This document shows positions 4,472 to 42,177 of a DNA stretch of 64,000 nucleotides, one piece after another. Position 1 is the stretch's first letter; each line of letters begins with the position of its first letter. The notes beneath the pieces were generated by a model, which saw only the letters and a program-made list of their open reading frames with translations, was not told the origin of the DNA and made no database searches. A program made the position numbers and the translations under genes. This DNA comes from a virus: IMG/VR virus record IMGVR_UViG_3300049783_001607. One strand, written 5' to 3'.

Positions 4472-4771
4472 TTAATAGATGTCTTTTCTATGACTTGAAG
4501 TTATTTTTTGCATCCTACATTTAGGAAATAAATGAATATTATTTTTTAATTGTTGCTCCGTATCAAATCTAGCAAGTATTTCTCCTATATCTCCAATTCT
4601 TGCTACAAATCTACCTATTTTAGCGTGTTTTCTGCAAAATGAATGGGCTCCGTTACTATGTGTAGCTATTTTTTGACATCTAGATGTACTTACAATACCA
4701 ACACCTTGCATAGTATGTTTCATAGATTTGTTACAAATAATATTTTCTGGATTATCAAAATTTTTATACAT
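4472..4771 (-). CDS. Hypothetical protein (Cys/His motif)
   Basis: 99 aa ORF; RCQK...FCRKH. Confidence 0.65.
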   Translation of the reverse strand: MYKNFDNPENIICNKSMKHTMQGVGIVSTSRCQKIATHSNGAHSFCRKHAKIGRFVARIGDIGEILARFDTEQQLKNNIHLFPKCRMQKITSSHRKDIY

Positions 4772-4792
4772 AATATTTAATTTATAATTGTT

Positions 4793-4882
4793 ATAATCTT
4801 ATTTCTTATTAGCTGAAAGGTTTTCCTTACATTTAATTTACATCCCTCTAATAGGGTGCAACACTAATAAGAATAAGGTTAT
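4793..4882 (-). ncRNA. Stem-closed element related to the 3' terminal hairpin of ncRNA motif A
   Basis: ataatcttatttcttattag...ctaataagaataaggttat; arms resemble ccctctttcttatta/taataagagtaggg at 5866 and 6424. Confidence 0.4.
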
Positions 4883-4900
4883 TTAATCAATTTATAATTT

Positions 4901-5074
4901 TTATACACGCAGCTTTTTTGCTTTATCATAATACGCTTCATCTATTTGTAAAACTTTTCCTTTAGGATCTGTGAGCCAGCGTTTAAAATTATTGTGGGTA
5001 GAATGTAATTTTCTCCCGTCTTTAAGTTCTATAGGTTTATCCACACTTGAACTAGGTAAATTGTATTTTTTCAT
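4901..5074 (-). CDS. Small hypothetical protein (57 aa)
   Basis: Manual translation MKKYNLPSSSVDKPIELKDGRK...AKKLRV*. Confidence 0.55.
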   Translation of the reverse strand: MKKYNLPSSSVDKPIELKDGRKLHSTHNNFKRWLTDPKGKVLQIDEAYYDKAKKLRV

Positions 5075-15574: not shown

Positions 15575-16021
15575 TTATTTAATATGAACGATATCAAGTA
15601 TTCTTGTATCAATTCTTTTTGATAATTTTTCGGTTTCTTCTTCAAAAACTTTTTTACATTCTGTTTTTAGTGCTAATTCGTTTTTTAAAGCTGCCCTAGC
15701 ATTACTAATTCCTTTTAAATAAACAGAAATAATATTATTTTGAGCTTCGTTTGTAAGAATATCATCTGGATTAACATTCATGTACGCCTCTTTCAACGAC
15801 TCTTCAAAATCTTCAATTCGCTCATTAAAAGATTCAATAGCTTGTTCGTAATTAAACTTTAGAGTTTCTTTATTCTTCTCTAAAGCTTGCACATCCCTTT
15901 TTAATTTTTTAACTACTTTAGTAAAAAAACTATCTAATTTTCCGTTATTACCTAATTTAAGTAATTCAGCGATTTTTCTTGTAATAAGATACTTAGCTGT
16001 TTCTTGTTTTTCTGTACTCAT
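15575..16021 (-). CDS. Coiled-coil hypothetical protein
   Basis: 148 aa, charged helical composition. Confidence 0.7.
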   Translation of the reverse strand: MSTEKQETAKYLITRKIAELLKLGNNGKLDSFFTKVVKKLKRDVQALEKNKETLKFNYEQAIESFNERIEDFEESLKEAYMNVNPDDILTNEAQNNIISVYLKGISNARAALKNELALKTECKKVFEEETEKLSKRIDTRILDIVHIK

Positions 16022-28683: not shown

Positions 28684-30174
28684 TTATTTTTTATATATTA
28701 GTCCGCCTTTTATAGAATTTTTTATATTATCACTATCGAAGAACCCTTTTTTATTTACAAGGCTCTTGGTATACTTAGGCGCAGCAAACATAGTAAAATT
28801 TGAATCTAGCTGCTCAGTATTAAATTGAGGCTTATATATCCTAGCGGCATTTGCTTCAAGCGCTCTTTTACTTGCATCTTTAAATATGTTTAAATTTTCA
28901 TCTATATCATAATCAAGTTTTCCATGAGATAAAAAAGGCCTGCCATAAAAGTTCTCTACTTTTCTTCCATTAAGGTTTAGATCCCAAATATCGTTATATT
29001 CCATCTTACCTTTATAAAATCTTCTGTTATAATTTCCCATTATATTAGTGGTATTAAAATCAACGGAACTATCAATTCCTTTCTTCTTTATATCCTCTAA
29101 CTGTTTAATATCTTTTAGATAATGAGGCATAGTTCTATTTTGGTCTTTCATTATCATATCCATACCAGGTAGTCGTTTATCAGGCAATTCTTTAAGTAGT
29201 TGTTTTTCCCTATTTATAGAGAAAATTTCCCTATTATTTAATTCACCTTTATTGTATAAAGGATGGTTTTTAGGGGCTGATCCAGCTACTCTAAAAGTAT
29301 TGTTTTTTTGTGGTATACCAGAATATAAATTCCAGGCGTCTTGTCTAGGTTTTGATATAACATCCGCACCTCTGTGAAGGTCATCTGCTAATGTAGGATA
29401 CATATCAACTAATTTTTTAGAGTTTTTATCCCCTTTTATTATTCTTTTAGGTATATTTAATAATCTTTTTGTAGCATTCTCATAACCATAAGGGGTCATA
29501 TAATCTGTCATTACCTCGGAAACCCCTGGAAAATAGCCTTTTCTTTGCGCTGAGGTAATACCTATTTTGCTCATTTGCATATCTTTAATATCCTCTAAAC
29601 TATAACCAGCTTTAAGACCTTCTGACTGTATTTGTCTCAGCTCTTTACCTACAGGATGAAAAGTATCTACGGTTTTTCTTAATGGTACCCGAGATTTTTT
29701 TATAAATGCTTTTGAAGCGCTTGTTATTGCTTTTTTAGCTAGGGGTATTGGTATTACACCTGCAGCACCTTCTAGAATTTGCATCCCATCTAAAGTTGCA
29801 GTACCTTGAATAACGTTTTTAGTGTCATAAGCATATTGAGCAGGGTTGACCACATCTAGAGCATAGTCTAGCGTATTTCTTGGGCCTCTTGAAAAATTAT
29901 CAGGTAAGTCTTTATTTCTAGCAGCATAACCTGCGGCTGTTAGAGGATTGAGCGCTATCTCAATAATCTTACTAAAAAAACCTTGTTTAGGCTCTGAAGG
30001 TCTTATTGATTGACTATTAGCGCTATCAGTCATAGCCTGTATGTTTGACTCCTTTCTTGTATTAGCTATATAGTCTAAAACAGATTGCTCGTCTTGTTTA
30101 GATACTATCTCTCTTGTTTTAATTCCTACTTGAGCCTTAATCGCTTTACCTTTATTTTTATCGTAATATATCAT
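28684..30174 (-). CDS. Hypothetical protein, probable virion cargo
   Basis: N-terminal KAQVG and C-terminal KGGLIYKK motifs; GTATTATATA directly upstream. Confidence 0.7.
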   Translation of the reverse strand: MIYYDKNKGKAIKAQVGIKTREIVSKQDEQSVLDYIANTRKESNIQAMTDSANSQSIRPSEPKQGFFSKIIEIALNPLTAAGYAARNKDLPDNFSRGPRNTLDYALDVVNPAQYAYDTKNVIQGTATLDGMQILEGAAGVIPIPLAKKAITSASKAFIKKSRVPLRKTVDTFHPVGKELRQIQSEGLKAGYSLEDIKDMQMSKIGITSAQRKGYFPGVSEVMTDYMTPYGYENATKRLLNIPKRIIKGDKNSKKLVDMYPTLADDLHRGADVISKPRQDAWNLYSGIPQKNNTFRVAGSAPKNHPLYNKGELNNREIFSINREKQLLKELPDKRLPGMDMIMKDQNRTMPHYLKDIKQLEDIKKKGIDSSVDFNTTNIMGNYNRRFYKGKMEYNDIWDLNLNGRKVENFYGRPFLSHGKLDYDIDENLNIFKDASKRALEANAARIYKPQFNTEQLDSNFTMFAAPKYTKSLVNKKGFFDSDNIKNSIKGGLIYKK

Positions 30175-30295
30175 ACCTATATAATACTAAATATTATTGA
30201 TTACTAAAAGCTTAATGTTAACCTATTTAAGGTAGTATCTAAACACTTCCTTGTAGGGGCTCTATAAGTACACTGATAATCAACACGTTATAGAA

Positions 30296-30345
30296 GGTTG
30301 AGGGTCAAAAGTTACATGTTTGAGGGTCAATTACTGCAGGTTTTA
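30296..30345. repeat. Iteron-like repeats GAGGGTCAA, second cluster
   Basis: ggttgagggtcaaaagttacatgtttgagggtcaattactgcaggtttta. Confidence 0.65.
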
Positions 30346-30359
30346 TTTATAAAAATATA

Positions 30360-30725
30360 CTATCTAACAAATTTACTATTTACTTCGTGTATTCTATTAA
30401 CAAGCCAGCCTAGTAGATAGCATTCTGCCTCATCATTATGCCTGTCTAGCAGCTGATCAACGTCTATAAATATTTTATTTACTAAATGTTTAGCTTCGTG
30501 TGCAATTATACCTGGAGTAGGATATTGCTTACTAGACGCATAAAAACAGCAATAGTGATGGTTGTTTAAAGTATATACAAACCCATCATATTTTCGGTGG
30601 TTAAATTCTAAATAAATATCCTTTTTTTTAAAGAATTTATCTAGTTTTTTAGGAGAAGAGTAAACAATCACTGTGAAAGTAAGACCATACAAAGGAGTAC
30701 GAAAATTTTTTTTTAGTAGTTTCAT
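30360..30725 (-). CDS. Small HExxH metallopeptidase-like protein
   Basis: IIAHEAKH...EAECY; TACCTTTG promoter directly upstream. Confidence 0.7.
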   Translation of the reverse strand: MKLLKKNFRTPLYGLTFTVIVYSSPKKLDKFFKKKDIYLEFNHRKYDGFVYTLNNHHYCCFYASSKQYPTPGIIAHEAKHLVNKIFIDVDQLLDRHNDEAECYLLGWLVNRIHEVNSKFVR

Positions 30726-30854
30726 ACTTCAAAGGTAACAATTAAAAATTAAAGTAGTATCTTTATAGAAAGAAATACTTTGCGCCAACCGGGCATGTAT
30801 CGCTACCTTCTCGTTGGACACTATAGCCTCTATTTATTTAGAGGCTATTTTTTG

Positions 30855-30930
30855 TGGGATGAGTAAGAATCGAACTTACGCAATGTCGCTGGGCTTCAAC
30901 CAACCGCTCTACCAACTGAGCTATCACCCC
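30855..30930 (-). tRNA. tRNA-Phe(GAA)
   Basis: Cloverleaf; anticodon loop TTGAAGC. Confidence 0.92.
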
Positions 30931-30940
30931 ATTATTTTTG

Positions 30941-31014
30941 CGCGGCCGGAGAGACTCGAACTCCCGACACCTGGTTTTGGAGACCAGTGCTCTGGCCAAC
31001 TGAGCTACACCCGC
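30941..31014 (-). tRNA. tRNA-Trp(CCA)
   Basis: ctggt-CTCCAAA-accag. Confidence 0.93.
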
Positions 31015-31025
31015 ATTTATTATTG

Positions 31026-31099
31026 AACGTCTGATGGGACTCGAACCCATGATCTTTCAGATTTGCAGTCTTTTTCCTTAGCCGCTCGGACACAGACGT
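31026..31099 (-). tRNA. tRNA-Cys(GCA)
   Basis: Loop CTGCAAA, U73. Confidence 0.9.
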
Positions 31100-31111
31100 A
31101 TTTAATAATAG

Positions 31112-31186
31112 CTCCTTAGGTTGGACTCGAACCAACAACCCCCGCATTAACAGTGCGATGCTCTAACCAGTTATAGCTACTAAGGA
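31112..31186 (-). tRNA. tRNA-Asn(GTT)
   Basis: tcgca-CTGTTAA-tgcgg. Confidence 0.93.
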
Positions 31187-31325
31187 ATATTTATATATTT
31201 GTAAACATAAAGCCAGTTCATATGAGGCTACAGAAACATCATCTATATCTTTAGCCCAAGTAACTATACCGTTAGGTAACACCACTTTTAAAAACCCGTC
31301 TTCTTGTTTAGTTATAATCATATTG

Positions 31326-31410
31326 TAGAAAGAAGAGGACACGAACCCCAAGGTATTACCCTCCCACTCCTTAGCAAGGAGGCCCAGTACGCCTGCCTGG
31401 TTTACTTTCT
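31326..31410 (-). tRNA. tRNA-Ser(GCT)
   Basis: ctcc-TTGCTAA-ggag, long variable arm. Confidence 0.85.
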
Positions 31411-31416
31411 ATTTTG

Positions 31417-31499
31417 CAGAGAATAAAGGAATCGAACCCTCAAGTATAACCTTGGCACGGCGTTCAAAACCGCTTATGCACCGCTGCATGCTACTCTCT
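31417..31499 (-). tRNA. tRNA-Ser(TGA)
   Basis: gcggt-TTTGAAC-gccgt, long variable arm. Confidence 0.87.
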
Positions 31500-31504
31500 A
31501 ATTG

Positions 31505-31594
31505 TGGGAATGATAGGATTCGAACCTATAATGGGGTCTTTCAACACCTACAGATTTACAGTCTGCTCGCTTCAGCCAATTTGCATACACGCCC
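31505..31594 (-). tRNA. tRNA-Tyr(GTA)
   Basis: gcaga-CTGTAAA-tctgt, long variable arm. Confidence 0.92.
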
Positions 31595-31604
31595 GATTTA
31601 AAAC

Positions 31605-31636
31605 AAAAAAAAAGACCCATTAATTAAAATGAGCCT
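31605..31636 (-). terminator. Attenuator terminator of tRNA operon C
   Basis: AGGCUCAUU/AAUGGGUCU stem plus long U tract, about 10 nt before tRNA-Tyr. Confidence 0.85.
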
Positions 31637-31661
31637 CTAGTTTGGTTGTATATTTTCTTAA

Positions 31662-31736
31662 TTACCCAAATAGCTCATCTGATCCGTTATAAAACGAATT
31701 ACAGAAATTACTATATGACCAACTTGTTACTTTCAC
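31662..31736 (-). CDS. Leader peptide C, MKVTSWSYSNFCNSFYNGSDELFG (GTG start)
   Basis: 13 consecutive codons for Ser/Trp/Tyr/Asn/Phe/Cys, the tRNAs downstream. Confidence 0.88.
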   Translation of the reverse strand: MKVTSWSYSNFCNSFYNGSDELFG

Positions 31737-31758
31737 TGTATTATTATTATTTAAGATG

Positions 31759-31766
31759 CAAATGTA
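31759..31766 (-). promoter_or_regulatory. -7 promoter element of tRNA operon C
   Basis: TACATTTG matches Bacteroidota TAnnTTTG. Confidence 0.8.
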
Positions 31767-31830
31767 CTACTTTATTTGTAATTATAAAAGAAAAAAATAC
31801 TTTTAATGGTTATTATTGCCTTGGGCTCCC

Positions 31831-32025
31831 TTAGTGATAGGGATAATTGTCATAAGTATCTTGGAAATACGATTGCCAAATAACCTGTTCTGTAGTAGTA
31901 ATAAGCTTAAATTTTTTCCAGGCCCCTTTGGGAAAAAGCTCTTTTACTGTATTAACTACATCAGCTATATTTGTACTTTCGGTAACTTCGATAGTTTTTT
32001 TTGTGGTATCTATTGTTAATTTCAT
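31831..32025 (-). CDS. Hypothetical protein
   Basis: 64 aa ORF coupled to 32022..32348. Confidence 0.65.
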   Translation of the reverse strand: MKLTIDTTKKTIEVTESTNIADVVNTVKELFPKGAWKKFKLITTTEQVIWQSYFQDTYDNYPYH

Positions 32026-32348
32026 TTATTTAAAAGTTTGAATGCTTTTTCTAAATCTATAAAAAAAATTAAAGGTTTATCCCCTATCAAAGTAGAATGC
32101 ACTTCATCTGAAAGTCGATTTTTGCTAAATTCAACACTGCCAGAATGTATGTCCCATTTAATTGAATTAATTGATTCTTTTCTTTGAATATAAGTAGCAG
32201 ATCCAGAAGAGTCTACATATTCAATCTCATCTTCTCTTTCGTATATTCTAAGCGAGCCTATTGGCATTTTAGTGTTTTGATTTTTAAAACTATTATCAAA
32301 GACTATAGTAGATAATGTTTCCGTCTTTCTTATTTGTTTATTTTTCAT
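32022..32348 (-). CDS. Hypothetical protein
   Basis: 108 aa; TACCTTTG promoter 4 nt upstream. Confidence 0.7.
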   Translation of the reverse strand: MKNKQIRKTETLSTIVFDNSFKNQNTKMPIGSLRIYEREDEIEYVDSSGSATYIQRKESINSIKWDIHSGSVEFSKNRLSDEVHSTLIGDKPLIFFIDLEKAFKLLNK

Positions 32349-32427
32349 AAATCAAAGGTAGTAAAAATAATGTTAACATGCAATAAGACAGCATTGTAAC
32401 CTGTATTTTACTATTTTAAATACTAAG

Positions 32428-32505
32428 TGGTCCTGGAGTGAATCGAACACTCATGTGACCTAGTTACGATTTCAACTGATTATGAGTCAGAGCCGATACA
32501 GGACC
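32428..32505 (-). tRNA. Atypical tRNA(CAT), probable Ile2 (lysidine), lacking a D-arm
   Basis: Perfect GGTCCTG/CAGGACC acceptor, GAGTG-TTCGATT-CACTC T-arm, ctga-CTCATAA-tcag. Confidence 0.7.
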
Positions 32506-32513
32506 TTAATTAG

Positions 32514-32587
32514 AAGAGGTAGAGGGATTCAAACCCCCAATCGGCAGGATAGAAACCCGCTGCGTTATTCAGTTACGCCATACCTCC
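32514..32587 (-). tRNA. tRNA-Arg(TCT)
   Basis: gcggg-TTTCTAT-cctgc. Confidence 0.88.
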
Positions 32588-32631
32588 ATTACATAGTTTT
32601 AAGTAAATTTAGGTAACTACAGACCTAGTTG

Positions 32632-33108
32632 TTATCCATGTATTTCTTTTAGTTTGGCTGAAGATAAAAGTACCATAACTAGTATTTCAGCTAATAAAAA
32701 AGATATATAATCTGTAAAATAACCTATAACAAATACGCTTACTGCTGAAATAACTACTGCAATACCTACTTTTTTATCTAAAGATGTCTCCCTGTTCCAT
32801 AACAGTGTAAAACAAGCTAATAAAATTGTAACTACAGTAACTATATTATGTAAACTTGTATGTTTATACATATCAAAAGCTAAAATTAATCCCATACCTA
32901 AAGCTAATAGATATTCAGTAGCGTATTTTTTTACTCGTGCATTCAAAAGAAAAAACCAAGAAGCAGTCAAGTGCATTAAATTATAAAATACATTATTATC
33001 AGCCGTAGCGTAAGCACTTAAAGAAGTTAAATCTTCTCCTCTTGTAACCCATATAAGAGCTGAAAATAAAATAGATAATAAAAGCAATATTGTTTTTAAC
33101 AGTTTCAT
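32632..33108 (-). CDS. Multi-pass membrane protein inside tRNA operon B
   Basis: About 6 hydrophobic segments. Confidence 0.75.
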   Translation of the reverse strand: MKLLKTILLLLSILFSALIWVTRGEDLTSLSAYATADNNVFYNLMHLTASWFFLLNARVKKYATEYLLALGMGLILAFDMYKHTSLHNIVTVVTILLACFTLLWNRETSLDKKVGIAVVISAVSVFVIGYFTDYISFLLAEILVMVLLSSAKLKEIHG

Positions 33109-33194
33109 AGTAATATAAGTTTAGTTTGAGTAAAAATACAACAATTAGCTGTAAATTCAAAGTTACTTTGCAATGATTAAATTTATTATTTTTG

Positions 33195-33267
33195 TACAGT
33201 GGGTAGGAATCGAACCTACGACATCTTTCGTGTAAAAAAAGCGCTACTACCGCTGAGCTACCACTGC
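33195..33267 (-). tRNA. tRNA-Val(TAC)
   Basis: ctttt-TTTACAC-gaaag. Confidence 0.88.
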
Positions 33268-33359
33268 AAGTAGGACCAATTATTTTATTAATCGGTCCCG
33301 ATAAAAGACCTATTTTGGGACACTTCAAAACTTCACGAGAGGTGTAATAGGTACTGTTG

Positions 33360-33432
33360 ATCCCAAGGTCAGGTTCGAACTGACGACATGCTCCTTACAA
33401 AAAAGCCGCTCTACCAACTGAGCTACTCGGGA
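33360..33432 (-). tRNA. tRNA-Thr(TGT)
   Basis: gcttt-TTTGTAA-ggagc. Confidence 0.88.
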
Positions 33433-33525
33433 ATGTCAAAGCTAAGGTATTCTCACGTCGATCGTTACCTATAAGGATGATAGCCCCTTGCTTTGATAGT
33501 TGTCTAGGATATCGCCTAAACTCTG

Positions 33526-33600
33526 CAGTCTATACGGGATTCGAACCCGTGATCTCCGCCGTGACAGGGCAGCGTCCACTCCTGGCTGGACCGATAGACT
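33526..33600 (-). tRNA. tRNA-Asp(GTC)
   Basis: ctgcc-CTGTCAC-ggcgg, G73. Confidence 0.93.
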
Positions 33601-33659
33601 ATTTGTGCCCTATCTAAAACCCTTTCCGGGAAAAGCCGCTGAGCACGTCTTAATTCTTG

Positions 33660-33732
33660 TGGCGAGAGAGGGATTCGAACCCCCGACCTGATGGTTATGA
33701 GCCACCCGAGCTGGCCACTGCTCTATCTCGCT
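33660..33732 (-). tRNA. tRNA-Met(CAT), initiator-like
   Basis: 1:72 mismatch, GAGC/GCTC D-stem, loop CTCATAA. Confidence 0.88.
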
Positions 33733-33741
33733 ATATTTTTG

Positions 33742-33813
33742 TTGCGACGATGGGATTTGAACCCATGACCTAGTAGATATGAACCACTTGCTCTACCTCT
33801 GAGCTACATCGCG
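33742..33813 (-). tRNA. tRNA-Met(CAT)
   Basis: agtgg-TTCATAT-ctact; C1:A72 mismatch, so initiator vs elongator is ambiguous. Confidence 0.85.
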
Positions 33814-33950
33814 ATATGTTTATACAATAAATCTTCTTCGTTTTTTCCAGGTTGCACGTTTCGATTTGTTAAATAAAAAAGAGTTATCTCTTCTAACTTC
33901 TTCTCTAGTTTTTACTTGTTCACTCATTTTCTTACTTTATTAATTATTTG

Positions 33951-34024
33951 TGCAGGATGCGAGGATCGAACTCGCTCTGTTCTAGATTGGAAGTCTAGCG
34001 CACCACCACTTATGCGTATCCTGC
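33951..34024 (-). tRNA. tRNA-Gly(TCC)
   Basis: ctaga-CTTCCAA-tctag. Confidence 0.92.
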
Positions 34025-34270
34025 GTTTGTTGGAACAGATGGATTTGAACCGCCGACATTCGTAGTATCAGTACGATGCTCTACCCCTGAGCTATGCTCC
34101 ATTATTTCTTTTCTTACTTCTTCATCTAAAAATTTTTTGTTCTTATTTTTTCTAGCTTCAAGTCCTATACCTTGACAATACCAGCAGTTACATTCATACC
34201 TTCTTTCTAGCTCTCTTTTACTATCAGTATACTTTTTATTAAATTTATTTTTTCTATATGTTCTACTCAT
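34010..34270 (-). CDS. Small basic CxCxxC protein within tRNA operon, reading through tRNA-Ile
   Basis: MSRTYRK...CNCWYC. Confidence 0.6.
   Translation of the reverse strand: MSRTYRKNKFNKKYTDSKRELERRYECNCWYCQGIGLEARKNKNKKFLDEEVRKEIMEHSSGVEHRTDTTNVGGSNPSVPTNAGYA
34030..34101 (-). tRNA. tRNA-Ile(GAT)
   Basis: tcgta-CTGATAC-tacga. Confidence 0.92.
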
Positions 34271-34282
34271 AATTAAATTTTG

Positions 34283-34354
34283 TGCCTCTGGCCAGTACTG
34301 ATCTGGCGGTCCTCTGTTTAAAAGACAGATGCTTTACCATTAAGCTACAAAGGC
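34283..34354 (-). tRNA. tRNA-Lys(TTT) with atypical T-loop
   Basis: tctgt-CTTTTAA-acaga; T-loop ATCAGTA. Confidence 0.85.
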
Positions 34355-34514
34355 AATATCCCCTGCAACTAGTCAGGAGTAATTAACGTTTAAACTTCTT
34401 AATAAATTTTTTCATAATTTTTAACGGTGAAATGTTTGCTCCACTAAATCTCATACTATTAGCAGAAAATAAATATTCATGTTTGTTCATATCATTATAA
34501 TTTAGTTAATGTTG

Positions 34515-34587
34515 TGGAATCGGAGGGAATCGAACCCTCAGGACTGTCGTTGCAAACGAAAGTGTCTAGCCAATACAACACGACCCC
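34515..34587 (-). tRNA. tRNA-Ala(TGC)
   Basis: G3.U70, loop TTTGCAA. Confidence 0.88.
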
Positions 34588-34589
34588 AT

Positions 34590-34621
34590 AAAAAAAGCTC
34601 CTATCTTTCGAAAGGAGCTTT
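34590..34621 (-). terminator. Attenuator terminator of tRNA operon B
   Basis: AAAGCUCCU/AGGAGCUUU stem, GAAA loop, U tract, 2 nt before tRNA-Ala. Confidence 0.88.
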
Positions 34622-34643
34622 ATGTTGTTTGTAATGTTTTAAA

Positions 34644-34724
34644 TTATCCACATATAACGTCCTTCCAAAGAGCTTGATCTCTCCCTGTTTTAACCGTAAC
34701 CGCTATGTTCATAATTGTTTTCAT
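34644..34724 (-). CDS. Leader peptide B, MKTIMNIAVTVKTGRDQALWKDVICG
   Basis: 15 of first 16 codons read by the 11 downstream tRNAs. Confidence 0.88.
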   Translation of the reverse strand: MKTIMNIAVTVKTGRDQALWKDVICG

Positions 34725-34755
34725 TGAAAATTGTTCTTTTTTTTACTATTGGTTG

Positions 34756-34763
34756 CAAATGTA
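34756..34763 (-). promoter_or_regulatory. -7 promoter element of tRNA operon B
   Basis: TACATTTG. Confidence 0.8.
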
Positions 34764-34810
34764 CTTCATTATATTATACTTTCCTAACAAAAAATAAATT
34801 ATTTGTATAG

Positions 34811-34885
34811 AATCTCTCCAGGGACTCGAACCCCGAATCTCTTAGTTCGTAGCTAAGTGCTTTAATCCAATTAAGCTAGAGAGAT
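34811..34885 (-). tRNA. tRNA-Arg(ACG)
   Basis: cttag-CTACGAA-ctaag. Confidence 0.92.
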
Positions 34886-34904
34886 ATTTATAAAGGTAAT
34901 ATTG

Positions 34905-34990
34905 TGCCCAAAGCGAGAGTCGAACTCGCACGACCTTTACAGATCCACAGATTTTAAGTCTGCTATGTCTACCAATTCCATCATGAAGGC
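34905..34990 (-). tRNA. tRNA-Leu(TAA)
   Basis: gcaga-CTTAAAA-tctgt, long variable arm. Confidence 0.9.
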
Positions 34991-35082
34991 ATTATAACGT
35001 CGTCGGGAATCACCTAGCTGCACTCATCTTATCTAGGATTAAAGTTTCGACACCTATCTGCTTATTATTTTCCCAACTATTG

Positions 35083-35168
35083 TGTCTACGAAGGGATTCG
35101 AACCCATAAACTTTTTCAAGAACTGGTTCCTAAGACCAGCGCGTTTACCCAATTTTCGCCACATAGAC
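35083..35168 (-). tRNA. tRNA-Leu(TAG)
   Basis: ctggt-CTTAGGA-accag, long variable arm. Confidence 0.92.
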
Positions 35169-35228
35169 AAATTACGATTTCAAAAACTTCTTGTACAGAA
35201 GATAACCTAATCGTTTGGTTAATTTGTG

Positions 35229-35302
35229 GGTGAAAGCTGGGGCTCGAACCCAGGGCTCCAGGACCACAACCTAGCGCTTTAGCCGGTTAAGCGACAATCA
35301 CC
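35229..35302 (-). tRNA. tRNA-His(GTG)
   Basis: ctagg-TTGTGGT-cctgg; G-1:C73. Confidence 0.9.
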
Positions 35303-35336
35303 ATATAATCTATATATTGTATATATAAATTGATAG

Positions 35337-35407
35337 ATGAGGTAAAGAGGCTCGAACTCTTGATTCGGCCGTCAAAGGGCCGCGTGTTACCGCTACACCA
35401 TACCTCA
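35337..35407 (-). tRNA. tRNA-Gln(TTG)
   Basis: cggcc-CTTTGAC-ggccg; U1-A72. Confidence 0.92.
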
Positions 35408-35418
35408 TTATTACATTG

Positions 35419-35490
35419 TACTGCGACGGAGAATCGAACTCCGGTTACCAAGGTGAAAGCCTGGCGTCTTAGCCACTGGACGACCGCAGC
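35419..35490 (-). tRNA. tRNA-Glu(TTC)
   Basis: ccagg-CTTTCAC-cttgg. Confidence 0.92.
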
Positions 35491-35523
35491 ATATTTTATA
35501 TCCGCTCATGATATAAATTATTG

Positions 35524-35600
35524 TCTAAGAAGTGAGAATCGAACTCACGAATCTCTTGTTTCCAAAACAAGCGGGTTCTTCCGTCTGCCCTAGCCCCTAG
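35524..35600 (-). tRNA. tRNA-Pro(TGG)
   Basis: cttgt-TTTGGAA-acaag; C1-G72, A73. Confidence 0.88.
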
Positions 35601-35615
35601 AATTTATTATAAACT

Positions 35616-35645
35616 AAAAAAACCTTCTAAATTAATAGAAGGTTT
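35616..35645 (-). terminator. Attenuator terminator of tRNA operon A
   Basis: AAACCUUCUA/UAGAAGGUUU stem plus U tract, 15 nt before tRNA-Pro. Confidence 0.88.
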
Positions 35646-35674
35646 CTTTATGTGTTTAATTATGACAGTTAAAT

Positions 35675-35758
35675 TCAGCCAAGATCGAGTACAAGATTCC
35701 TTCCATTGATTAACAACGGTTGTTCCAGTAATTCGATATGACGTAATGATCTGTTCAT
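35675..35758 (-). CDS. Leader peptide A, MNRSLRHIELLEQPLLINGRNLVLDLG
   Basis: 11 of codons 5-16 read by the 7 downstream tRNAs. Confidence 0.88.
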   Translation of the reverse strand: MNRSLRHIELLEQPLLINGRNLVLDLG

Positions 35759-35762
35759 ATTG

Positions 35763-35770
35763 CAAATATA
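35763..35770 (-). promoter_or_regulatory. -7 promoter element of tRNA operon A
   Basis: TATATTTG 4 nt before leader ATG. Confidence 0.8.
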
Positions 35771-35838
35771 CAATTATAGTTTAATATATAACTAATAAAA
35801 GAAAAATATTTTGTATATTTATCGATTAAAGACTTATT

Positions 35839-36630
35839 ATGGCCGATAAACCTAACAGAATTAAAATTGATACTCATAGAGGGAAAGAAAATACTGCTTT
35901 CGGTAAGCATTCAAGAGTACCTTTTAATATAGAAGATCTTGATTCTAGAAGTCTTTTAATCCTAGCTTTTATAGACATCGATCAATTTTTAGACTCGAAA
36001 TTTAAAACTAAAAACATTAGACGAATTATAAGACTGGAGGATTTTTCTTTTACTTTAGGTGTAAGTAAAAACACGGTTAAAAAGTGTTTAAAAGAATTGG
36101 AGACTAAAGAGTTAATAACTTCTACATATAAACACAGTGTAGGTACTTCGTATATATCTAATATAGTCAAACTGCATGTAAAATATCAAATAATAACTTA
36201 CTCATTTATTTCTAGACAGGATTTATCTCATTCAGTAAAAGCTTTTATATTAAAGGTTATAATGCTTGGAGAAAATAGAATATCTAACATACGAAACGTT
36301 ACAGCTTTAGTAAAAGAAACTAGTACTCCAAGAAGAAAAGTAAATGAAGTTTTGGACTCTTTGTTATTGCAAGGATATATATTGGATCATCCTACAGAAA
36401 AGTCAATTCAAATATTGGATGTATCTGGTATAATGTTAGATTCGGAAGAAAAGTTAATGCTTGAACACAGACAATTAAGAGAAGCCATATCTTTTTATGA
36501 AACTAATCTTCCTACTTTTAGTGAAGATGATACAGAAGAGATTTCTAGATTAAAGTCTGAAGTAGGGAGACTACTTAAAAAAATAGAAATGATCCAAAAT
36601 GGCAAAAGTAAAAATCATAAAAAGACATAG
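35839..36630 (+). CDS. Winged helix-turn-helix DNA-binding protein (replication initiator/regulator-like)
   Basis: LGVSKNTVKKCLKELETKELI HTH; second HTH-like segment; C-terminal coiled coil. Confidence 0.65.
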   Translation: MADKPNRIKIDTHRGKENTAFGKHSRVPFNIEDLDSRSLLILAFIDIDQFLDSKFKTKNIRRIIRLEDFSFTLGVSKNTVKKCLKELETKELITSTYKHSVGTSYISNIVKLHVKYQIITYSFISRQDLSHSVKAFILKVIMLGENRISNIRNVTALVKETSTPRRKVNEVLDSLLLQGYILDHPTEKSIQILDVSGIMLDSEEKLMLEHRQLREAISFYETNLPTFSEDDTEEISRLKSEVGRLLKKIEMIQNGKSKNHKKT

Positions 36631-39444: not shown

Positions 39445-40006
39445 ATTTACTTTAGTAGGTGGGAAAGTAGTGCTTGATCCTAATATAGTACTATTTGAGC
39501 CGTTACATAAATTGTATAAAAGTAAAAACGGGCCTAAATATTTACAAGTTATTTATTATATGAATTCTACGGATCCTGATAATCCGTTTAGAGATTTTGA
39601 TCCCTTTGTATTAGAAGAAAATGTTTTAATGACCATTTTTAAAAAGAATAGTTTTGAATCTTTGAAAATGTCTGGCGAGTTAAAACTTTTATTCCAGGAG
39701 GCAGAAGATATTTTTATAAAGCATAACAGCACCCCTGAAAAAAGATTACTTAAAGCAGTAGATAAAAAACTTGATGAAATATCTACTATGCTTAATGAAA
39801 ACATACCTAAAATAGAAGAATCTGTTAGTGAAATACATGGAACAAAGTTTAGTACTAACTTAAATATAATGCTTAATGCTTTTACTAAAATAGAAGTTAT
39901 TATGAAAAGTAAAACTTTATTGCAAAACGCGGTTCTTAAAGCTGACGGTGCAGGTAAAGTAAGAGGCGGAGGTTCAACTAGTTTTAGAGAAAGGGGACTT
40001 AAATAA
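39437..40006 (+). CDS. Conserved protein upstream of terminase (possible small terminase subunit)
   Basis: Position and translational coupling to TerL; helical. Confidence 0.5.
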   Translation: MIKFTLVGGKVVLDPNIVLFEPLHKLYKSKNGPKYLQVIYYMNSTDPDNPFRDFDPFVLEENVLMTIFKKNSFESLKMSGELKLLFQEAEDIFIKHNSTPEKRLLKAVDKKLDEISTMLNENIPKIEESVSEIHGTKFSTNLNIMLNAFTKIEVIMKSKTLLQNAVLKADGAGKVRGGGSTSFRERGLK

Positions 40007-42177
40007 TGAGAATAAGTGCAAAAACAAAGTACGATCGGTACAACAAAAATAAACTTCCTTTTCTAAATAGGTCGGATGACAAAATAATGAATGGTCATTG
40101 GGATGTTACAGAAACAGTTGAATTTTTAACAGGTATACGTACAGGCGAGGAGGAAATAAGACTAAAAGATTACTTAGTCTATAGACCTTTGCCTAAAGCT
40201 ATTACTGCTTTAACCGTAAAACCTGATGTACATCCGCAGAGCTATGACATGCAGATGTACTATAAGAAAATAAACAAGGCCATGGAAGAAGGAATCTATA
40301 TAGGTTCTGAGTACTATAACCCTATGTTTTGTTTTTGGCTTATTATGTTTATGTTTGAAATCCCATTATATGATGACAAAGGTAACCCTCTAGACGGTTT
40401 TGAAGTAGGTAGACCTTTGTATTCTAATATTGATAGATACGTTTTTGATCTTTTATGGAAAGGGTACAAAACTAGAAAGTACGGAGCCATAATGGGAGGA
40501 AGAGGTATAGGTAAATCTTTTATTACTGATTCTGTAATGGCTTGGTACTATATGATTTTTGATAGCCAAGAGTTAATTGTATCTGCAACTTCTGATCCAA
40601 TTGTAGAAGAAGCTTGGGATAAAGTTACAGACACTATTAAAGCCATAGAAAAAGAATACCCGGGATACAGACAAAAGCAAAAAACCAGCTCAACTAAAAA
40701 AATTGTAGCTGGAGAAGAGTATTTTGATAGTAATCACGATGAACAGACAAGAGGGTCTGGTAACGAAATTAGAAGAATAACTTACGCAGATAATCCTAAC
40801 GTTACAAGGGGTAGAAGACCTCATTTTCAACACATAGAAGAATTTGCATCATTCCCGTCACACCCGTCAAAAGGATCTCTTAAAAATTGTTTGGGACAAT
40901 CCAAAGGTTCTTGGAAAATAATGGGTTCTATTATGAAAGCTTTTGTAATGTTGACTGGTACAGGGGGATCTGTAAATAATAAAGACGCTGAAGACGTGTT
41001 TACTAATCCACGAGGTTTTAATTTGCTTCTTGTAAACGAGTGGGGAAGAGAGACAGGTATATTTATTCCGGCTTATTTAAAGTATGGAGGAACATGGGAG
41101 CATTCTGGAGTACCTAATATTGAACTAGCTATGAGACAGCTGATTCAATCTAGAAAAGATTTAGAGTCAGATCCTGTAGCATTTATGCAAGAATTACAAG
41201 AATTCCCTATAACATTAGAAGAAGTTTTTACTGTAACAGGTACAAATATATTTAATCAAGACAAGATTGCTGAGCAGCTTACTAAATTAAAAGTGGCGAC
41301 AGTTAAACCTTGGAAAGAAGGAAGACTTGACTATATAATGGATAAAGAAGGTAACCCTACCGGAGTAGAGTTTATAGAAGTTAGAGGAGGTAAAATTATA
41401 ATTGTAGAGCCGCCAGATATAGAATCGAATGGCCAAATAATGAATAATTTATATGTGGGCGGAGTGGATAGTATTGATCAAGGTAAAAAAGATTCTTTAG
41501 TAGACGGGTCTAAGCTAGCTGTAGCAATTAAAAAGCGTATATCTAATAACATGTTTAGCAGGACTAGTCAAGTATACGTTGCATTTTATAATGAAAGATC
41601 TGACGATGTTAGATGGGATTATGAAAATGTACTTAAGCTGTCGATGTATTACAACGCTAAGTTAAATATTGAGTATACCAAAATAAATATTATATCTTTT
41701 TTTAGGGATAAAGGTCAGTTATGGAGAATATTAAAAAGACCTTCTATTGCTATAGGGTCTAATGTCAGCGGCGCTAAAGCCAGTACTCTTTTAGGTACTC
41801 CTGCAACAGGTGCTGTAATCGATCACCAGGATCAAAAATTTGCGGATTATATTGACGATTATTACTATCTAATTATGTATATTCCAGTTTTGGAACAATC
41901 TAGAGATTACTCTAGAGAAAAAAGGACTGCGTTTGATTTTGTTGTAGCCTGCGGATTAGCGGAACTAGCTGATGAAGATTTTTTAGGTAAGCCTGCTTCC
42001 ACTACTGGTACAGCCTCAAGCGACCTTGCTATGATAGGTGTCTATAGAGATAGAAATGGTAAAAAAAGATGGGGGCCAATACCTAAAAAAGAAACCGAAA
42101 TTACTTCTATTGCAGAAGAAGAATTACAGAGTGATAATAGCTCTGACGCATATAAATGGGTAGTTGATAGTCCATAG
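40006..42177 (+). CDS. terL: Terminase large subunit
   Basis: Walker A GGRGIGKS, Walker B HIEE, TGTGG motif III, RNase H-like YVGGVDSID. Confidence 0.93.
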   Translation: MRISAKTKYDRYNKNKLPFLNRSDDKIMNGHWDVTETVEFLTGIRTGEEEIRLKDYLVYRPLPKAITALTVKPDVHPQSYDMQMYYKKINKAMEEGIYIGSEYYNPMFCFWLIMFMFEIPLYDDKGNPLDGFEVGRPLYSNIDRYVFDLLWKGYKTRKYGAIMGGRGIGKSFITDSVMAWYYMIFDSQELIVSATSDPIVEEAWDKVTDTIKAIEKEYPGYRQKQKTSSTKKIVAGEEYFDSNHDEQTRGSGNEIRRITYADNPNVTRGRRPHFQHIEEFASFPSHPSKGSLKNCLGQSKGSWKIMGSIMKAFVMLTGTGGSVNNKDAEDVFTNPRGFNLLLVNEWGRETGIFIPAYLKYGGTWEHSGVPNIELAMRQLIQSRKDLESDPVAFMQELQEFPITLEEVFTVTGTNIFNQDKIAEQLTKLKVATVKPWKEGRLDYIMDKEGNPTGVEFIEVRGGKIIIVEPPDIESNGQIMNNLYVGGVDSIDQGKKDSLVDGSKLAVAIKKRISNNMFSRTSQVYVAFYNERSDDVRWDYENVLKLSMYYNAKLNIEYTKINIISFFRDKGQLWRILKRPSIAIGSNVSGAKASTLLGTPATGAVIDHQDQKFADYIDDYYYLIMYIPVLEQSRDYSREKRTAFDFVVACGLAELADEDFLGKPASTTGTASSDLAMIGVYRDRNGKKRWGPIPKKETEITSIAEEELQSDNSSDAYKWVVDSP

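Follow-up and report, generated by a model that had tools for sequence, protein, structure and literature searches.

Codon-matched leader-peptide attenuators predicted upstream of three tRNA gene blocks in a Bacteroidetes phage

Each of three blocks of tRNA genes in a Bacteroidetes phage (IMG/VR record IMGVR_UViG_3300049783_001607) is likely gated by ribosome-mediated (leader-peptide) attenuation, with the regulatory codons being those that the block's own tRNAs read. Sequence and folding models point to this arrangement, in which a tRNA set would probably be made only when ribosomes run short of that set. A short ORF after a promoter, cognate codons, a terminator, an antiterminator that excludes it, the matching register and default termination were all found in silico. 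Attenuation had been proposed in an initial annotation of the same DNA, and is supported here by the folding register, by shuffle and own-terminator pairing controls, and by recurrence in relatives. No publication describing such trp-operon-style control of tRNA genes was found. The analysis covered a stretch of 64,000 nucleotides (64 kb), referred to below as the window.

The minus strand carries all tRNA genes of the window, grouped in three blocks. ARAGORN with default settings called 22 tRNAs at 30854-35600, all on the minus strand, and Rfam likewise gave 22. Relaxed ARAGORN added Ser-GCT (31325-31410) and Ser-TGA (31416-31499). A 25th gene (32428-32505, anticodon CAT) was called by neither ARAGORN nor Rfam; it has lost the D-arm and contains a 17-nt insert, and it aligns with the CAT tRNA of Cellulophaga phage phi17:2 and the TAT tRNA of phage Calle at the equivalent position after Arg-TCT. 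The tally is 24 tRNAs and one aberrant CAT gene. The initial annotation had listed 25 tRNAs in three operons; the three blocks stand, whereas the number of full tRNAs does not. Small ORFs of unassigned function are interspersed among the tRNA genes of operon B. The source habitat of the phage is polar ice. The blocks are as follows.

34810..35600, minus strand: operon A, 7 tRNAs (Pro-TGG, Glu-TTC, Gln-TTG, His-GTG, Leu-TAG, Leu-TAA, Arg-ACG), from ARAGORN and Rfam
32428..34587, minus strand: operon B, 10 tRNAs (Ala-TGC, Lys-TTT, Ile-GAT, Gly-TCC, CAT twice, Asp-GTC, Thr-TGT, Val-TAC, Arg-TCT) plus the CAT tRNA-like gene without a D-arm
30854..31594, minus strand: operon C, 7 tRNAs (Tyr-GTA, Ser-TGA, Ser-GCT, Asn-GTT, Cys-GCA, Trp-CCA, Phe-GAA), from ARAGORN including relaxed settings and Rfam

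The cassette that had been described as common to the operons, namely a promoter, an ORF of 24-27 aa, a terminator and the first tRNA 2-15 nt further on, was seen at all three blocks. Promoters were located by motif scan and leader ORFs from the sequence.

35762..35771, minus strand: promoter A, a ten-base motif that includes the Bacteroidetes -7 box
34755..34764, minus strand: promoter B, the same ten-base motif
31758..31767, minus strand: promoter C, the same ten-base motif as in B
35675..35758, minus strand: leader ORF A, 27 codons and TGA
34644..34724, minus strand: leader ORF B, 26 codons and TAA
31662..31736, minus strand: leader ORF C, GTG start, 24 codons and TAA

The ten-base motif occurs five times in 64 kb, and three of these occurrences are just upstream of the leader ORFs on the correct strand. 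The -7 box of the Bacteroidetes housekeeping sigma factor (TA, two free bases, TTTG) is present at all three leaders. The ATG of leader A is 4 nt past this box, so its mRNA is probably leaderless; the same promoter-plus-ATG layout recurs in Calle, in Maribacter phage Panino and in IMG/VR contigs. Shine-Dalgarno sequences are absent from the leaders, which is normal for Bacteroidetes. Given this absence and the GTG starts of leader C and of leader B in phi17:2, the leader start sites are unproven predictions.

Codons read by the operon's own tRNAs make up 11/12 of the central run in leader A (codons 5-16), 15/16 in leader B (codons 1-16) and 13/13 in leader C (codons 5-17). The run of A contains five Leu codons (both classes), two Glu and one each of Arg (CGT), His, Gln and Pro, with one foreign Ile. 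That of B contains Met (two), Lys (two), Thr (three), Val (two), Ile as ATT and as ATA, Ala, Gly, Arg (AGA) and Asp, with one foreign Asn. The run of C is composed of four Ser (both classes), three Asn, two Tyr, two Phe, Trp and Cys, with no foreign codon. Every anticodon class is covered (A 7/7, B 10/10, C 7/7), as had been claimed earlier for every tRNA, provided that Val-TAC decodes GTT (U34 serving its whole family box) and that the reader of ATA is a CAT tRNA modified with lysidine. The reported match at the level of isoacceptors was reproduced: Arg is encoded by CGT in A and by AGA in B, and both classes are used for Leu in A, for Ile in B and for Ser in C. For comparison, every stop-free segment of the 64 kb was scanned, in each frame of either strand. 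Runs of equal purity were found in 12 of 56,257 segments for A (one unrelated, repeat-like region around 47.3 kb accounts for 10), in 7 of 45,606 for B and in 1 of 53,237 for C, the last being the leader itself; the match to the operon's own tRNAs thus holds and is rare elsewhere. The Gly-stop ending noted initially is present in all three leaders of the window and in two of three in phi17:2. It occurs in none of six leaders in Calle, Panino and metagenome contig L017, and is therefore not a conserved feature.

Terminators and antiterminator strands were predicted by folding.

35615..35650, minus strand: intrinsic terminator A, hairpin of -14 to -16 kcal/mol followed by a T-tract
34594..34621, minus strand: intrinsic terminator B, hairpin of -14.3 kcal/mol and T-tract
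31611..31638, minus strand: intrinsic terminator C, hairpin followed by a long T-tract
35699..35707, minus strand: antiterminator strand A (region 2), codons 18-20, pairing with the 5' arm of terminator A
34650..34666, minus strand: antiterminator strand B, codons 20-25, pairing with the 5' arm of terminator B
31666..31680, minus strand: antiterminator strand C, codons 19-24, pairing with the 5' arm of terminator C

Over the three leaders the terminator hairpins range from -10 to -16 kcal/mol, and the distance from terminator end to first tRNA is 14 nt in A, 2 nt in B (tRNA-Ala) and about 5 nt in C. The minimum-energy folds of all three full-length leaders include the terminator, which is the modelled default fold of the untranslated RNA. 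Ribosome positions were scanned blind to codon identity, with RNA behind the ribosome assumed not to pair across it. The antiterminator occupied 60-100% of the terminator 5' arm (dG -12 to -19 kcal/mol). It was permitted with the A site on codons 3-15 (A), 1-16 (B) and 1-16 (C), and was lost further on. The end of this permissive zone (codons 15-17) coincides with the end of the own-codon run in the three leaders of the window and in 14 relatives. Dinucleotide shuffles matched the observed sequestration and energy jointly in 5/300 (A), 0/300 (B) and 2/300 (C) cases. Leader 3' segments paired with their own terminator arms at a mean of -10.8 kcal/mol and with the arms of other leaders at -8.1 kcal/mol (permutation p=0.0003). 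A segment complementary to the terminator 5' arm, as initially described, is thus predicted in A, B and C and outperforms shuffled sequence. In leader A the terminator remained the thermodynamic optimum even with a stalled ribosome, so antitermination would hinge on co-transcriptional kinetics; a ribosome parked at the stop codon of this leader has the antiterminator strand behind it.

A comparison of leaders with tRNA content in related phages, suggested by the initial annotation, was positive, with the cassettes present again in no fewer than five Flavobacteriia phage lineages, cultured or uncultured. Carriers are Cellulophaga phages phi17:2, phi4:1 and Calle, Maribacter phage Panino and eight uncultured contigs.

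L001 7035-7103, 6060-6143 and 4486-4584: three leaders of phi17:2, preceding the same three tRNA sets
L018 7176-7253, 5584-5673 and 4344-4433: leaders of Calle, in operon order B, C, A, each codon-matched
L019 7147-7227 and 6132-6206: leaders A and B of Panino

The layout of phi4:1 is that of phi17:2. Contig L017 has a C leader with 14/14 own codons, and at its B position a 41-codon ORF of mixed composition in place of a pure leader. An IMG/VR search using the promoter-plus-start motif alone yielded 10 short ORFs followed by tRNAs, all of which match those tRNAs. Pooling of 17 leaders gave 191 own and 41 foreign codons at positions that permit the antiterminator, against 80 and 126 at other positions (odds ratio 7.3, Fisher p=3e-21; p=2e-15 for an earlier set of 12 leaders). 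In all 12 leaders of the initial collection, the choice of Arg codon (CGN in A, AGA in B) tracks the isoacceptors present, as do both classes of Leu, of Ile and of Ser. Lineages differ in the order of residues within the peptides and in the order of the operons, and the codon set still fits the downstream tRNAs; C-type leaders retain set membership alone. Beyond the matched run the leader tails show no conservation, and homology is recognisable among the A-type leaders of the various phages. Within the natural population, which is nearly clonal, the leaders do not vary informatively. No RNA run contained the locus.

The probability that short ORFs and hairpins in AT-rich intergenic DNA resemble attenuators by chance is negligible. 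Such a resemblance draws on the general abundance of short ORFs and nothing more, and is effectively refuted by statistics and conservation (the segment scan, the shuffles, the pooled Fisher test, the own-terminator pairing and the recurrence in many independent phages). It is also very unlikely that the hairpins are constitutive terminators, insulators or signals for tRNA-precursor processing or stability, with uncoupled ORFs and a codon match carried as baggage of a mobile cassette. Part of the similarity is common descent, given the homology of A-type leaders, and no terminator is visible between operon A and promoter B, where insulating hairpins would be unneeded. An operon whose own promoter was followed directly by a constitutive terminator, 2-15 nt short of the first tRNA, would, however, simply be silent. 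This explanation also leaves unaccounted for the three-way codon split that mirrors the tRNA split, the substitutions that stay in the set despite reshuffled order, and the end of the run at the antiterminator boundary.

In a second phage family, 11 IMG/VR loci carry a single 31-codon ORF and a terminator ahead of an array of 21-23 tRNAs. All 20 amino acids are present in nine of 10 distinct variants of this leader (chance 5e-4), and this content is maintained via compensating substitutions. The peptide is well conserved and varies synonymously, which points to coding constraint. Three of these loci have a sigma-70-like promoter between the terminator and the first tRNA, and several arrays lack a Leu tRNA despite a Leu codon in the leader. 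Conservation of this kind, and the annotation of some leader ORFs as hypothetical proteins in GenBank, would suit micro-proteins with a function in trans that shapes their composition, their target being, for example, tRNA processing or a host factor. Such a role is extremely unlikely, as C-type leaders are shuffled in order and kept only as a set, unlike a folded or binding peptide, tails beyond the matched run are unconserved, and the terminator/antiterminator geometry would be left unexplained.

The leader-peptide attenuators proposed here share with trpL, hisL, pheL and leuL the four-part layout and the register, with regulatory codons upstream of the antiterminator and default termination when untranslated. 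The his, phe and leu leaders contain codon runs of 4-7; the phage leaders lack single-codon runs, their output is RNA genes, and their stop codons are 22-24 nt before the terminator arm. The ilvGMEDA (Ile, Val, Leu) and thr (Thr, Ile) leaders likewise combine codons for several amino acids with a choice between terminator and antiterminator and OR-logic read-through. Those leaders control enzymes, whereas the phage leaders control tRNAs, sample up to 10-11 tRNAs mostly once or twice, with the set being the operon's own products, and have leaderless or Shine-Dalgarno-less starts in a Bacteroidetes phage. Synthetase genes are controlled by the pheM leader of pheST and by his-type leaders before hisS paralogues, which sense one amino acid (PMC2965389). 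The common trait is attenuation applied to the translation apparatus and not to biosynthesis, but the phage cassettes control the tRNAs themselves. In T-box riboswitches, too, tRNA status selects terminator or antiterminator upstream of translation-related genes. Their contact with uncharged tRNA is direct and involves neither a ribosome nor an ORF. A permissive Rfam scan of 30000-36500 returned the tRNAs and two weak chance matches, with no T-box or other Rfam family, and T-box identity was rejected. Leaderless polycysteine short ORFs of mycobacteria are described as Cys-responsive attenuators (bioRxiv 10.1101/834739); these are likewise located at operon 5' ends, with translation speed setting downstream expression, but as described there they sense one amino acid, act on protein-coding targets and belong to another phylum.

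In the proposed mechanism, host RNA polymerase would start at the Bacteroidetes-type promoter with a ribosome translating the 24-27-codon leader close behind. Fast decoding of all sampled codons would bring the ribosome past about codon 17, where the antiterminator strand is occupied or unwound; with the antiterminator blocked, the terminator hairpin would form and transcription would halt shortly ahead of the first tRNA. Slow decoding of any sampled codon, its tRNA being scarce or uncharged, would stall the ribosome upstream; the antiterminator strand would then pair with the terminator 5' arm, and polymerase would read on into the tRNA genes. Only 1-5 codons of a leader sample any one tRNA, in place of runs of 4-7, so sensitivity to mild shortage may be low. 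Foreign codons at permissive positions, namely codons 2-4 of A and C, the Ile in A and the Asn in B, are expected to cause cross-talk. Translation of the leaders has indirect support in the codon-set membership retained between lineages and in the synonymous variation of the second family. We infer leader translation, transcription-translation coupling, response size, the natural trigger and a link to anticodon nucleases or starvation.

The same switch could possibly, if doubtfully, take as its natural signal host amino-acid supply or general translation speed (charged versus uncharged tRNA) and not tRNA loss, giving more tRNA in starved or slow cells, or merely steady output, with no response to defence nucleases. 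Classical attenuators (trp, his) respond to charged tRNA, and on that model reduced charging of any kind would have the same stalling effect on the ribosome; a general translation read-out also suits the breadth of the leaders, with nearly every amino acid over the three operons and all 20 in the second family. Extra tRNA, however, does not cure amino-acid starvation, so the loop would not close, and sampling each tRNA once or twice fits all-or-none loss better than graded shortage. The sequence holds nothing that separates the two signals.

Phage tRNA arrays replace host tRNAs lost to tRNA-targeting immunity, as with T5 against PARIS and with PrrC-type anticodon nucleases (PMC10264068, PMC11464382). 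Regulation of the arrays is not described in either paper, and the terms 'attenuat', 'leader' and 'terminator' are absent from PMC10264068. No clear equivalent of the cassette was found in the T5 tRNA region. The arrays considered here would likewise replace lost tRNAs, which gives a plausible reason to sense tRNA shortage. Under leader-peptide attenuation each leader would be an OR gate over 7-11 tRNAs, and since the operon's product is the molecule sensed, the loop would provide negative feedback on tRNA supply.

The three tRNA blocks of the window (operons A, B and C) all opened in the same way on the minus strand, with a promoter motif followed by a short ORF, a hairpin with a T-tract and the first tRNA gene. 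The ten-base motif carrying the Bacteroidetes -7 promoter box occurred five times in the 64 kb when both strands were searched, and three of these occurrences were at the leaders.

Elements of the three leader cassettes, and the 25th tRNA-like gene
35762-35771, minus strand: promoter motif of A (ten-base motif search)
35758-35675, minus strand: leader ORF A
35650-35615, minus strand: terminator hairpin and T-tract of A
34755-34764, minus strand: promoter motif of B (ten-base motif search)
34724-34644, minus strand: leader ORF B
34621-34594, minus strand: terminator hairpin and T-tract of B
31758-31767, minus strand: promoter motif of C (ten-base motif search)
31736-31662, minus strand: leader ORF C, with a GTG start
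31638-31611, minus strand: terminator hairpin and T-tract of C
32428-32505, minus strand: CAT tRNA-like gene (25th), with a perfect acceptor stem, T-arm and CAT anticodon loop

Leader ORF and hairpin were separated by 22-24 nt, and the first tRNA followed the hairpin and T-tract after 14 nt (A), 2 nt (B) or about 5 nt (C). The mRNA of A is probably leaderless, since its ATG lies four bases past the -7 box; that of B has an A-rich 5' leader of about 25 nt before the ORF. No terminator was seen in the sequence that separates promoter B from operon A, nor in that separating promoter C from the ORFs at the end of operon B, so the gates may also act in series on read-through transcripts. Natural variation was assessed on contigs of four ice or sediment runs, which were nearly clonal and had no substitution within the leader ORFs; the sole substitution noted near leader B was at 34732, in the 5' untranslated region.

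The window (G+C 31%) was assigned to a tailed phage from its large terminase (40006-42177), which matches phrog_6681, and its DNA was almost completely present in several ice metagenomes; no RNA run was listed as containing this stretch. All tRNA genes are on the minus strand within 30854-35600. ARAGORN identified 22 tRNAs, as did Rfam, and relaxed ARAGORN settings added two more, both Ser; jointly the tRNA genes span all 20 amino acids. The 25th gene was called by none of the tRNA tools used. Alignment to its positional counterparts after Arg-TCT, which are a CAT tRNA in Cellulophaga phage phi17:2 and in the metagenome contig L017 and a TAT tRNA in Cellulophaga phage Calle, revealed that about 13 nt of the D-arm are missing and that 17 nt are extra in the variable region. 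By this positional homology it is a candidate reader of ATA, and it is either a pseudogene or an unusual functional tRNA. The Rfam scan matched no family other than tRNA, Pfam and PHROGs gave no function for the ORFs inside the array, and no tRNA repair or modification enzyme was found among the 20 larger ORFs scanned. A small basic Cys-containing protein of 56 aa is encoded between tRNA-Lys and tRNA-Ile (34103-34270, minus) and is 35% identical (pairwise E=8e-9) to a 52-aa ORF at the equivalent place in L017 (1771-1926, minus). Its frame has no stop before entering the tRNA-Ile gene, so that excision of this tRNA would yield a stop-less message. The array closes with a hairpin at 30823-30848, possibly a terminator that works in both directions: its T-run, on the plus strand, overlaps the 3' end of tRNA-Phe, and the minus strand has an A-run.

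Each sense codon of the leaders was assigned to the operon holding its tRNA, with Arg codons split between A (CGN) and B (AGR). Codons 5-16 of leader A comprise five Leu (both classes), two Glu, Arg (CGT), His, Gln and Pro, with one Ile as the only codon read by a tRNA of another block (a foreign codon). Codons 1-16 of leader B comprise three Thr, two each of Met, Lys and Val, both Ile ATT and Ile ATA, and single Ala, Gly, Arg (AGA) and Asp codons, with one foreign Asn. Codons 5-17 of leader C contain no foreign codon: four are Ser (both classes), three Asn, two Tyr, two Phe, one Trp and one Cys. Under ordinary wobble, the operon's own anticodons read 11/12 (A), 13/16 (B) and 13/13 (C) of these codons. 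The figure for B rises to 15/16 if U34 reads a whole family box, as GTT needs Val-TAC, and with such reading every anticodon class of each operon is sampled by its leader. Purity was compared with that of all stop-free windows of equal length in the entire 64 kb, taking both strands and every frame. Runs of the same purity numbered 12 of 56,257 windows for A (a single unrelated repeat-like stretch near 47.3 kb accounts for ten), 7 of 45,606 for B, and 1 of 53,237 for C, this being leader C itself. The placement of the pure runs between promoter and terminator, ahead of exactly the matching tRNAs, excludes a chance origin. The initial annotation had described three operons behind like cassettes, each leader built from codons of its own tRNAs and ending in Gly-stop; nearly every detail was confirmed, with reservations for the aberrant 25th tRNA and for the Gly-stop ending, which is not conserved among relatives and was rejected as part of the mechanism.

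In the proposed mechanism, fast decoding would let the ribosome cover the antiterminator strand, which pairs with the 5' arm of the terminator, and the terminator would halt transcription shortly ahead of the tRNAs. If the ribosome stalled on any of the sampled codons, the antiterminator would be freed and the tRNA block transcribed. Full-length leaders folded with the terminator formed, and untranslated RNA is thus predicted to terminate. Stalling was modelled by placing the ribosomal A site on each codon in turn and masking the RNA to 12 nt past that codon; the RNA folded was the transcript just before emergence of the terminator 3' arm, and codon identity was ignored. In leader A, 35699-35707 paired with the 5' arm when the A site was on codons 3-15, tying up 10/15 arm bases at about -16 kcal/mol and weakening to -12 at codon 15. 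A helix from 34650-34666 occupied 11/12 arm bases in leader B for codons 1-16 (-14 to -19 kcal/mol), and one from 31666-31680 occupied the arm in leader C, also for codons 1-16 (-10 to -19 kcal/mol). In all three leaders the antiterminator was lost once the ribosome was beyond codons 16-18, and the runs of own codons end at codons 16 (A), 16 (B) and 17 (C), the point where a stall turns unproductive. When the upstream RNA was dinucleotide-shuffled, the observed sequestration and energy were matched together by 5 (A), 0 (B) and 2 (C) of 300 shuffles. The terminator of leader A stayed the thermodynamic optimum even with the ribosome stalled, and the antiterminator would therefore have to be favoured by kinetics.

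Relatives of the cassettes were found in otherwise unrelated phages. Resemblance of the array to those of Cellulophaga phages phi17:2 and phi4:1 (Lightbulbvirus, 145 kb) is confined to some of the tRNAs, and the flanking proteins are at most 22% identical to their counterparts there (22% for the 496-aa protein against the phi17:2 helicase); a search of IMG/VR with the 496-aa protein gave no close relatives. The three tRNA sets of phi17:2 and phi4:1 have the same membership as those of the window, in unchanged order. The phi17:2 leaders and terminators (L001: 7035-7103, 6060-6143 and 4486-4584) have pure central runs, and one of these leaders is annotated as a hypothetical protein whose start would fall within the promoter. 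Cellulophaga phage Calle (Pervagoviridae, 73 kb; L018) has the block order B, C, A instead of the A, B, C seen elsewhere, and the matching leader stays with each block. Maribacter phage Panino (77 kb; L019) has blocks A and B with their leaders and lacks block C. In L017 (3.6 kb) the C leader has 14/14 own codons; the B position holds a 41-codon ORF of mixed composition, the only exception met. Since the sets are kept as units in otherwise unrelated carriers, the cassettes act like mobile modules. The division of tRNAs among the sets is largely by the first codon base. In the Panino array, a tmRNA annotated in GenBank (4659-4991) overlaps tRNA-Thr and tRNA-Asp and looks like an annotation artefact.

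IMG/VR was also searched using only the promoter-plus-start motif of the leaderless leaders. A short ORF begins at 18 of the 82 hits, and ten of these ORFs have tRNAs within 400 nt downstream; all ten spell the downstream tRNA set. Across lineages, C-type leaders vary in residue order while the set used is constant, and homology is more recognisable in A-type leaders. The class of Arg codon, and the two classes each of Leu, Ile and Ser, tracked the isoacceptors in 12/12 leaders first collected. In 17 pooled leaders, own and foreign codons numbered 191 and 41 at positions permitting the antiterminator and 80 and 126 at other positions (odds ratio 7.3, p=3e-21). Leader 3' segments paired better with their own terminator arm (-10.8 kcal/mol) than with the arms of other leaders (-8.1 kcal/mol; permutation p=0.0003), which argues that the switch co-evolves as a unit. 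The check proposed in the initial annotation, that related phages be searched for an ORF and terminator upstream of tRNA arrays, thus had a positive outcome, with codon sets following tRNA sets.

A hairpin of about 45 nt lies between tRNA-Thr and tRNA-Val of the window (33308-33352, minus). Its apical 24-27 nt, the longest exact match between arrays, do not differ between the window, phi17:2/phi4:1 and L017 and are almost unchanged in Calle. The lower stem covaries, with compensating changes in 5/13 pairs (4 sequences), and a T-run follows in 3/4 sequences; in L017 the hairpin is placed after tRNA-Ile instead. Rfam had no match for it. Among viral contigs, searches with the element returned only phi4:1 and Calle; metagenomes added one contig, and prokaryote genomes gave no hit. 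Its role may be that of an internal conditional terminator, a processing site or a protein-binding site.

A second family was reached through a tRNA-Asp core common to the window and IMG/VR contigs (17-172 kb), which have sigma-70-like promoters and a tRNA order differing from that of the window. In 11 loci of uncultured phages (L003, L005, L006, L009-L016) a single 31-codon ORF lies directly behind the upstream gene and is followed by a strong terminator and an array of 21-23 tRNAs. The array is headed by tRNA-Pro, 68-73 nt past the leader stop, except in L012 (150 nt) and in L003, where the first tRNA is Glu at 258 nt. All 20 amino acids were present in 9/10 distinct leader variants, against a chance of 5e-4 for a random peptide of equal length and background composition. 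Codons 1-23 form the antiterminator-permissive zone and hold 17-19 different amino acids. Loss of Leu at codon 4 is accompanied by Leu further on, and third-position variation indicates that the frame is under coding constraint. The family looks like the same idea with one gate for the entire array. It is less clean than that of the window: some arrays have no Leu tRNA, and in L003 (about 1660-1720), L007 and L012 a good sigma-70-type promoter between leader terminator and first tRNA would bypass the gate. No relative among cultured phages was found by tblastn with the leader or with the neighbouring 494-aa protein. The tRNA region of phage T5 (L021) has promoters and small ORFs and no recognisable leader-terminator-tRNA unit. 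One part of the 91-aa T5.072 protein (15618-15893) is unusually enriched in Trp, Glu, Tyr and Phe. The gene immediately precedes promoter P14a and the tRNAs for these four amino acids, which may be coincidence.

The reading of the leaders as attenuators, first put forward in the initial annotation, was upheld by structural and comparative tests, and that the cassettes are codon-matched attenuators is strongly supported by these independent lines. Cassette parts, their register and their conservation were seen directly in sequence, folds and comparisons. Translation of the leaders and transcription-translation coupling in the hosts are presumed, as is the size of the attenuation effect. Every feature of a leader-peptide attenuator that can be read from sequence was found in the window cassettes. 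The arrangement of parts follows classical ribosome-mediated attenuation, except that codons sampling the operon's own tRNAs would take the place of the regulatory codons. Closest among known systems are the multivalent attenuators of the ilv and thr operons, the trp, his, phe and leu leaders, and leaders in front of synthetase genes, namely pheM and the his-type leaders of hisS paralogues (PMC2965389); T-boxes are near by logic only. Full-text searches, with most subscription journals outside their coverage, returned no publication describing tRNA genes, of phages or of other origin, under leader-peptide control. What is new here is the target class (tRNA genes) and the sensing design, on a known kind of switch.

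Leaders that sample exactly the tRNAs of their own operon imply a phage that gauges decoding capacity and provides tRNAs as needed. As most tRNAs are sampled 1-3 times, we think that the device suits drastic loss of one tRNA over a mild shortage. Such a preference would fit tRNA-cleaving defences or phage-induced tRNA decay as the trigger; starvation or a plain homeostatic signal may be the trigger instead.

Fifty years of debate on the role of phage tRNA genes have put forward codon compensation, host tRNA decay and, latest, escape from tRNA-cleaving immunity. To our knowledge, how phage tRNA arrays are regulated has hardly been asked. Defences that cleave tRNAs are now known (PMC10264068, PMC11464382). 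Attenuators, leaders and terminators go unmentioned in the eLife paper that deals with phage tRNAs and anticodon nucleases (PMC10264068). The reach of leader-peptide attenuation would widen to RNA genes and Bacteroidetes-infecting phages, and its design to many inputs. The cassettes are compact natural parts of about 150 nt each and could serve as individual tRNA-pool sensors. The idea is open to testing at once, as cultured host-phage pairs with the device are available (Cellulophaga with phi17:2, phi4:1 or Calle; Maribacter with Panino), and read-through of the gates should report which tRNAs become limiting in infection. We suggest, tentatively and at rather less than even chances, that self-sensing cassettes are a general, horizontally exchanged phage device and an inducible counter-defence, each an OR gate that opens when any of its own tRNAs is destroyed. 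The destroyers would be host anticodon nucleases, other tRNA-targeting immunity or phage-induced tRNA decay, and the device would come in a split form, with three codon-partitioned gates, and an all-amino-acid form, with one 31-codon leader holding 20. If this is true, the cassettes would be the first natural sensor known to couple tRNA abundance back to tRNA synthesis via the ribosome.
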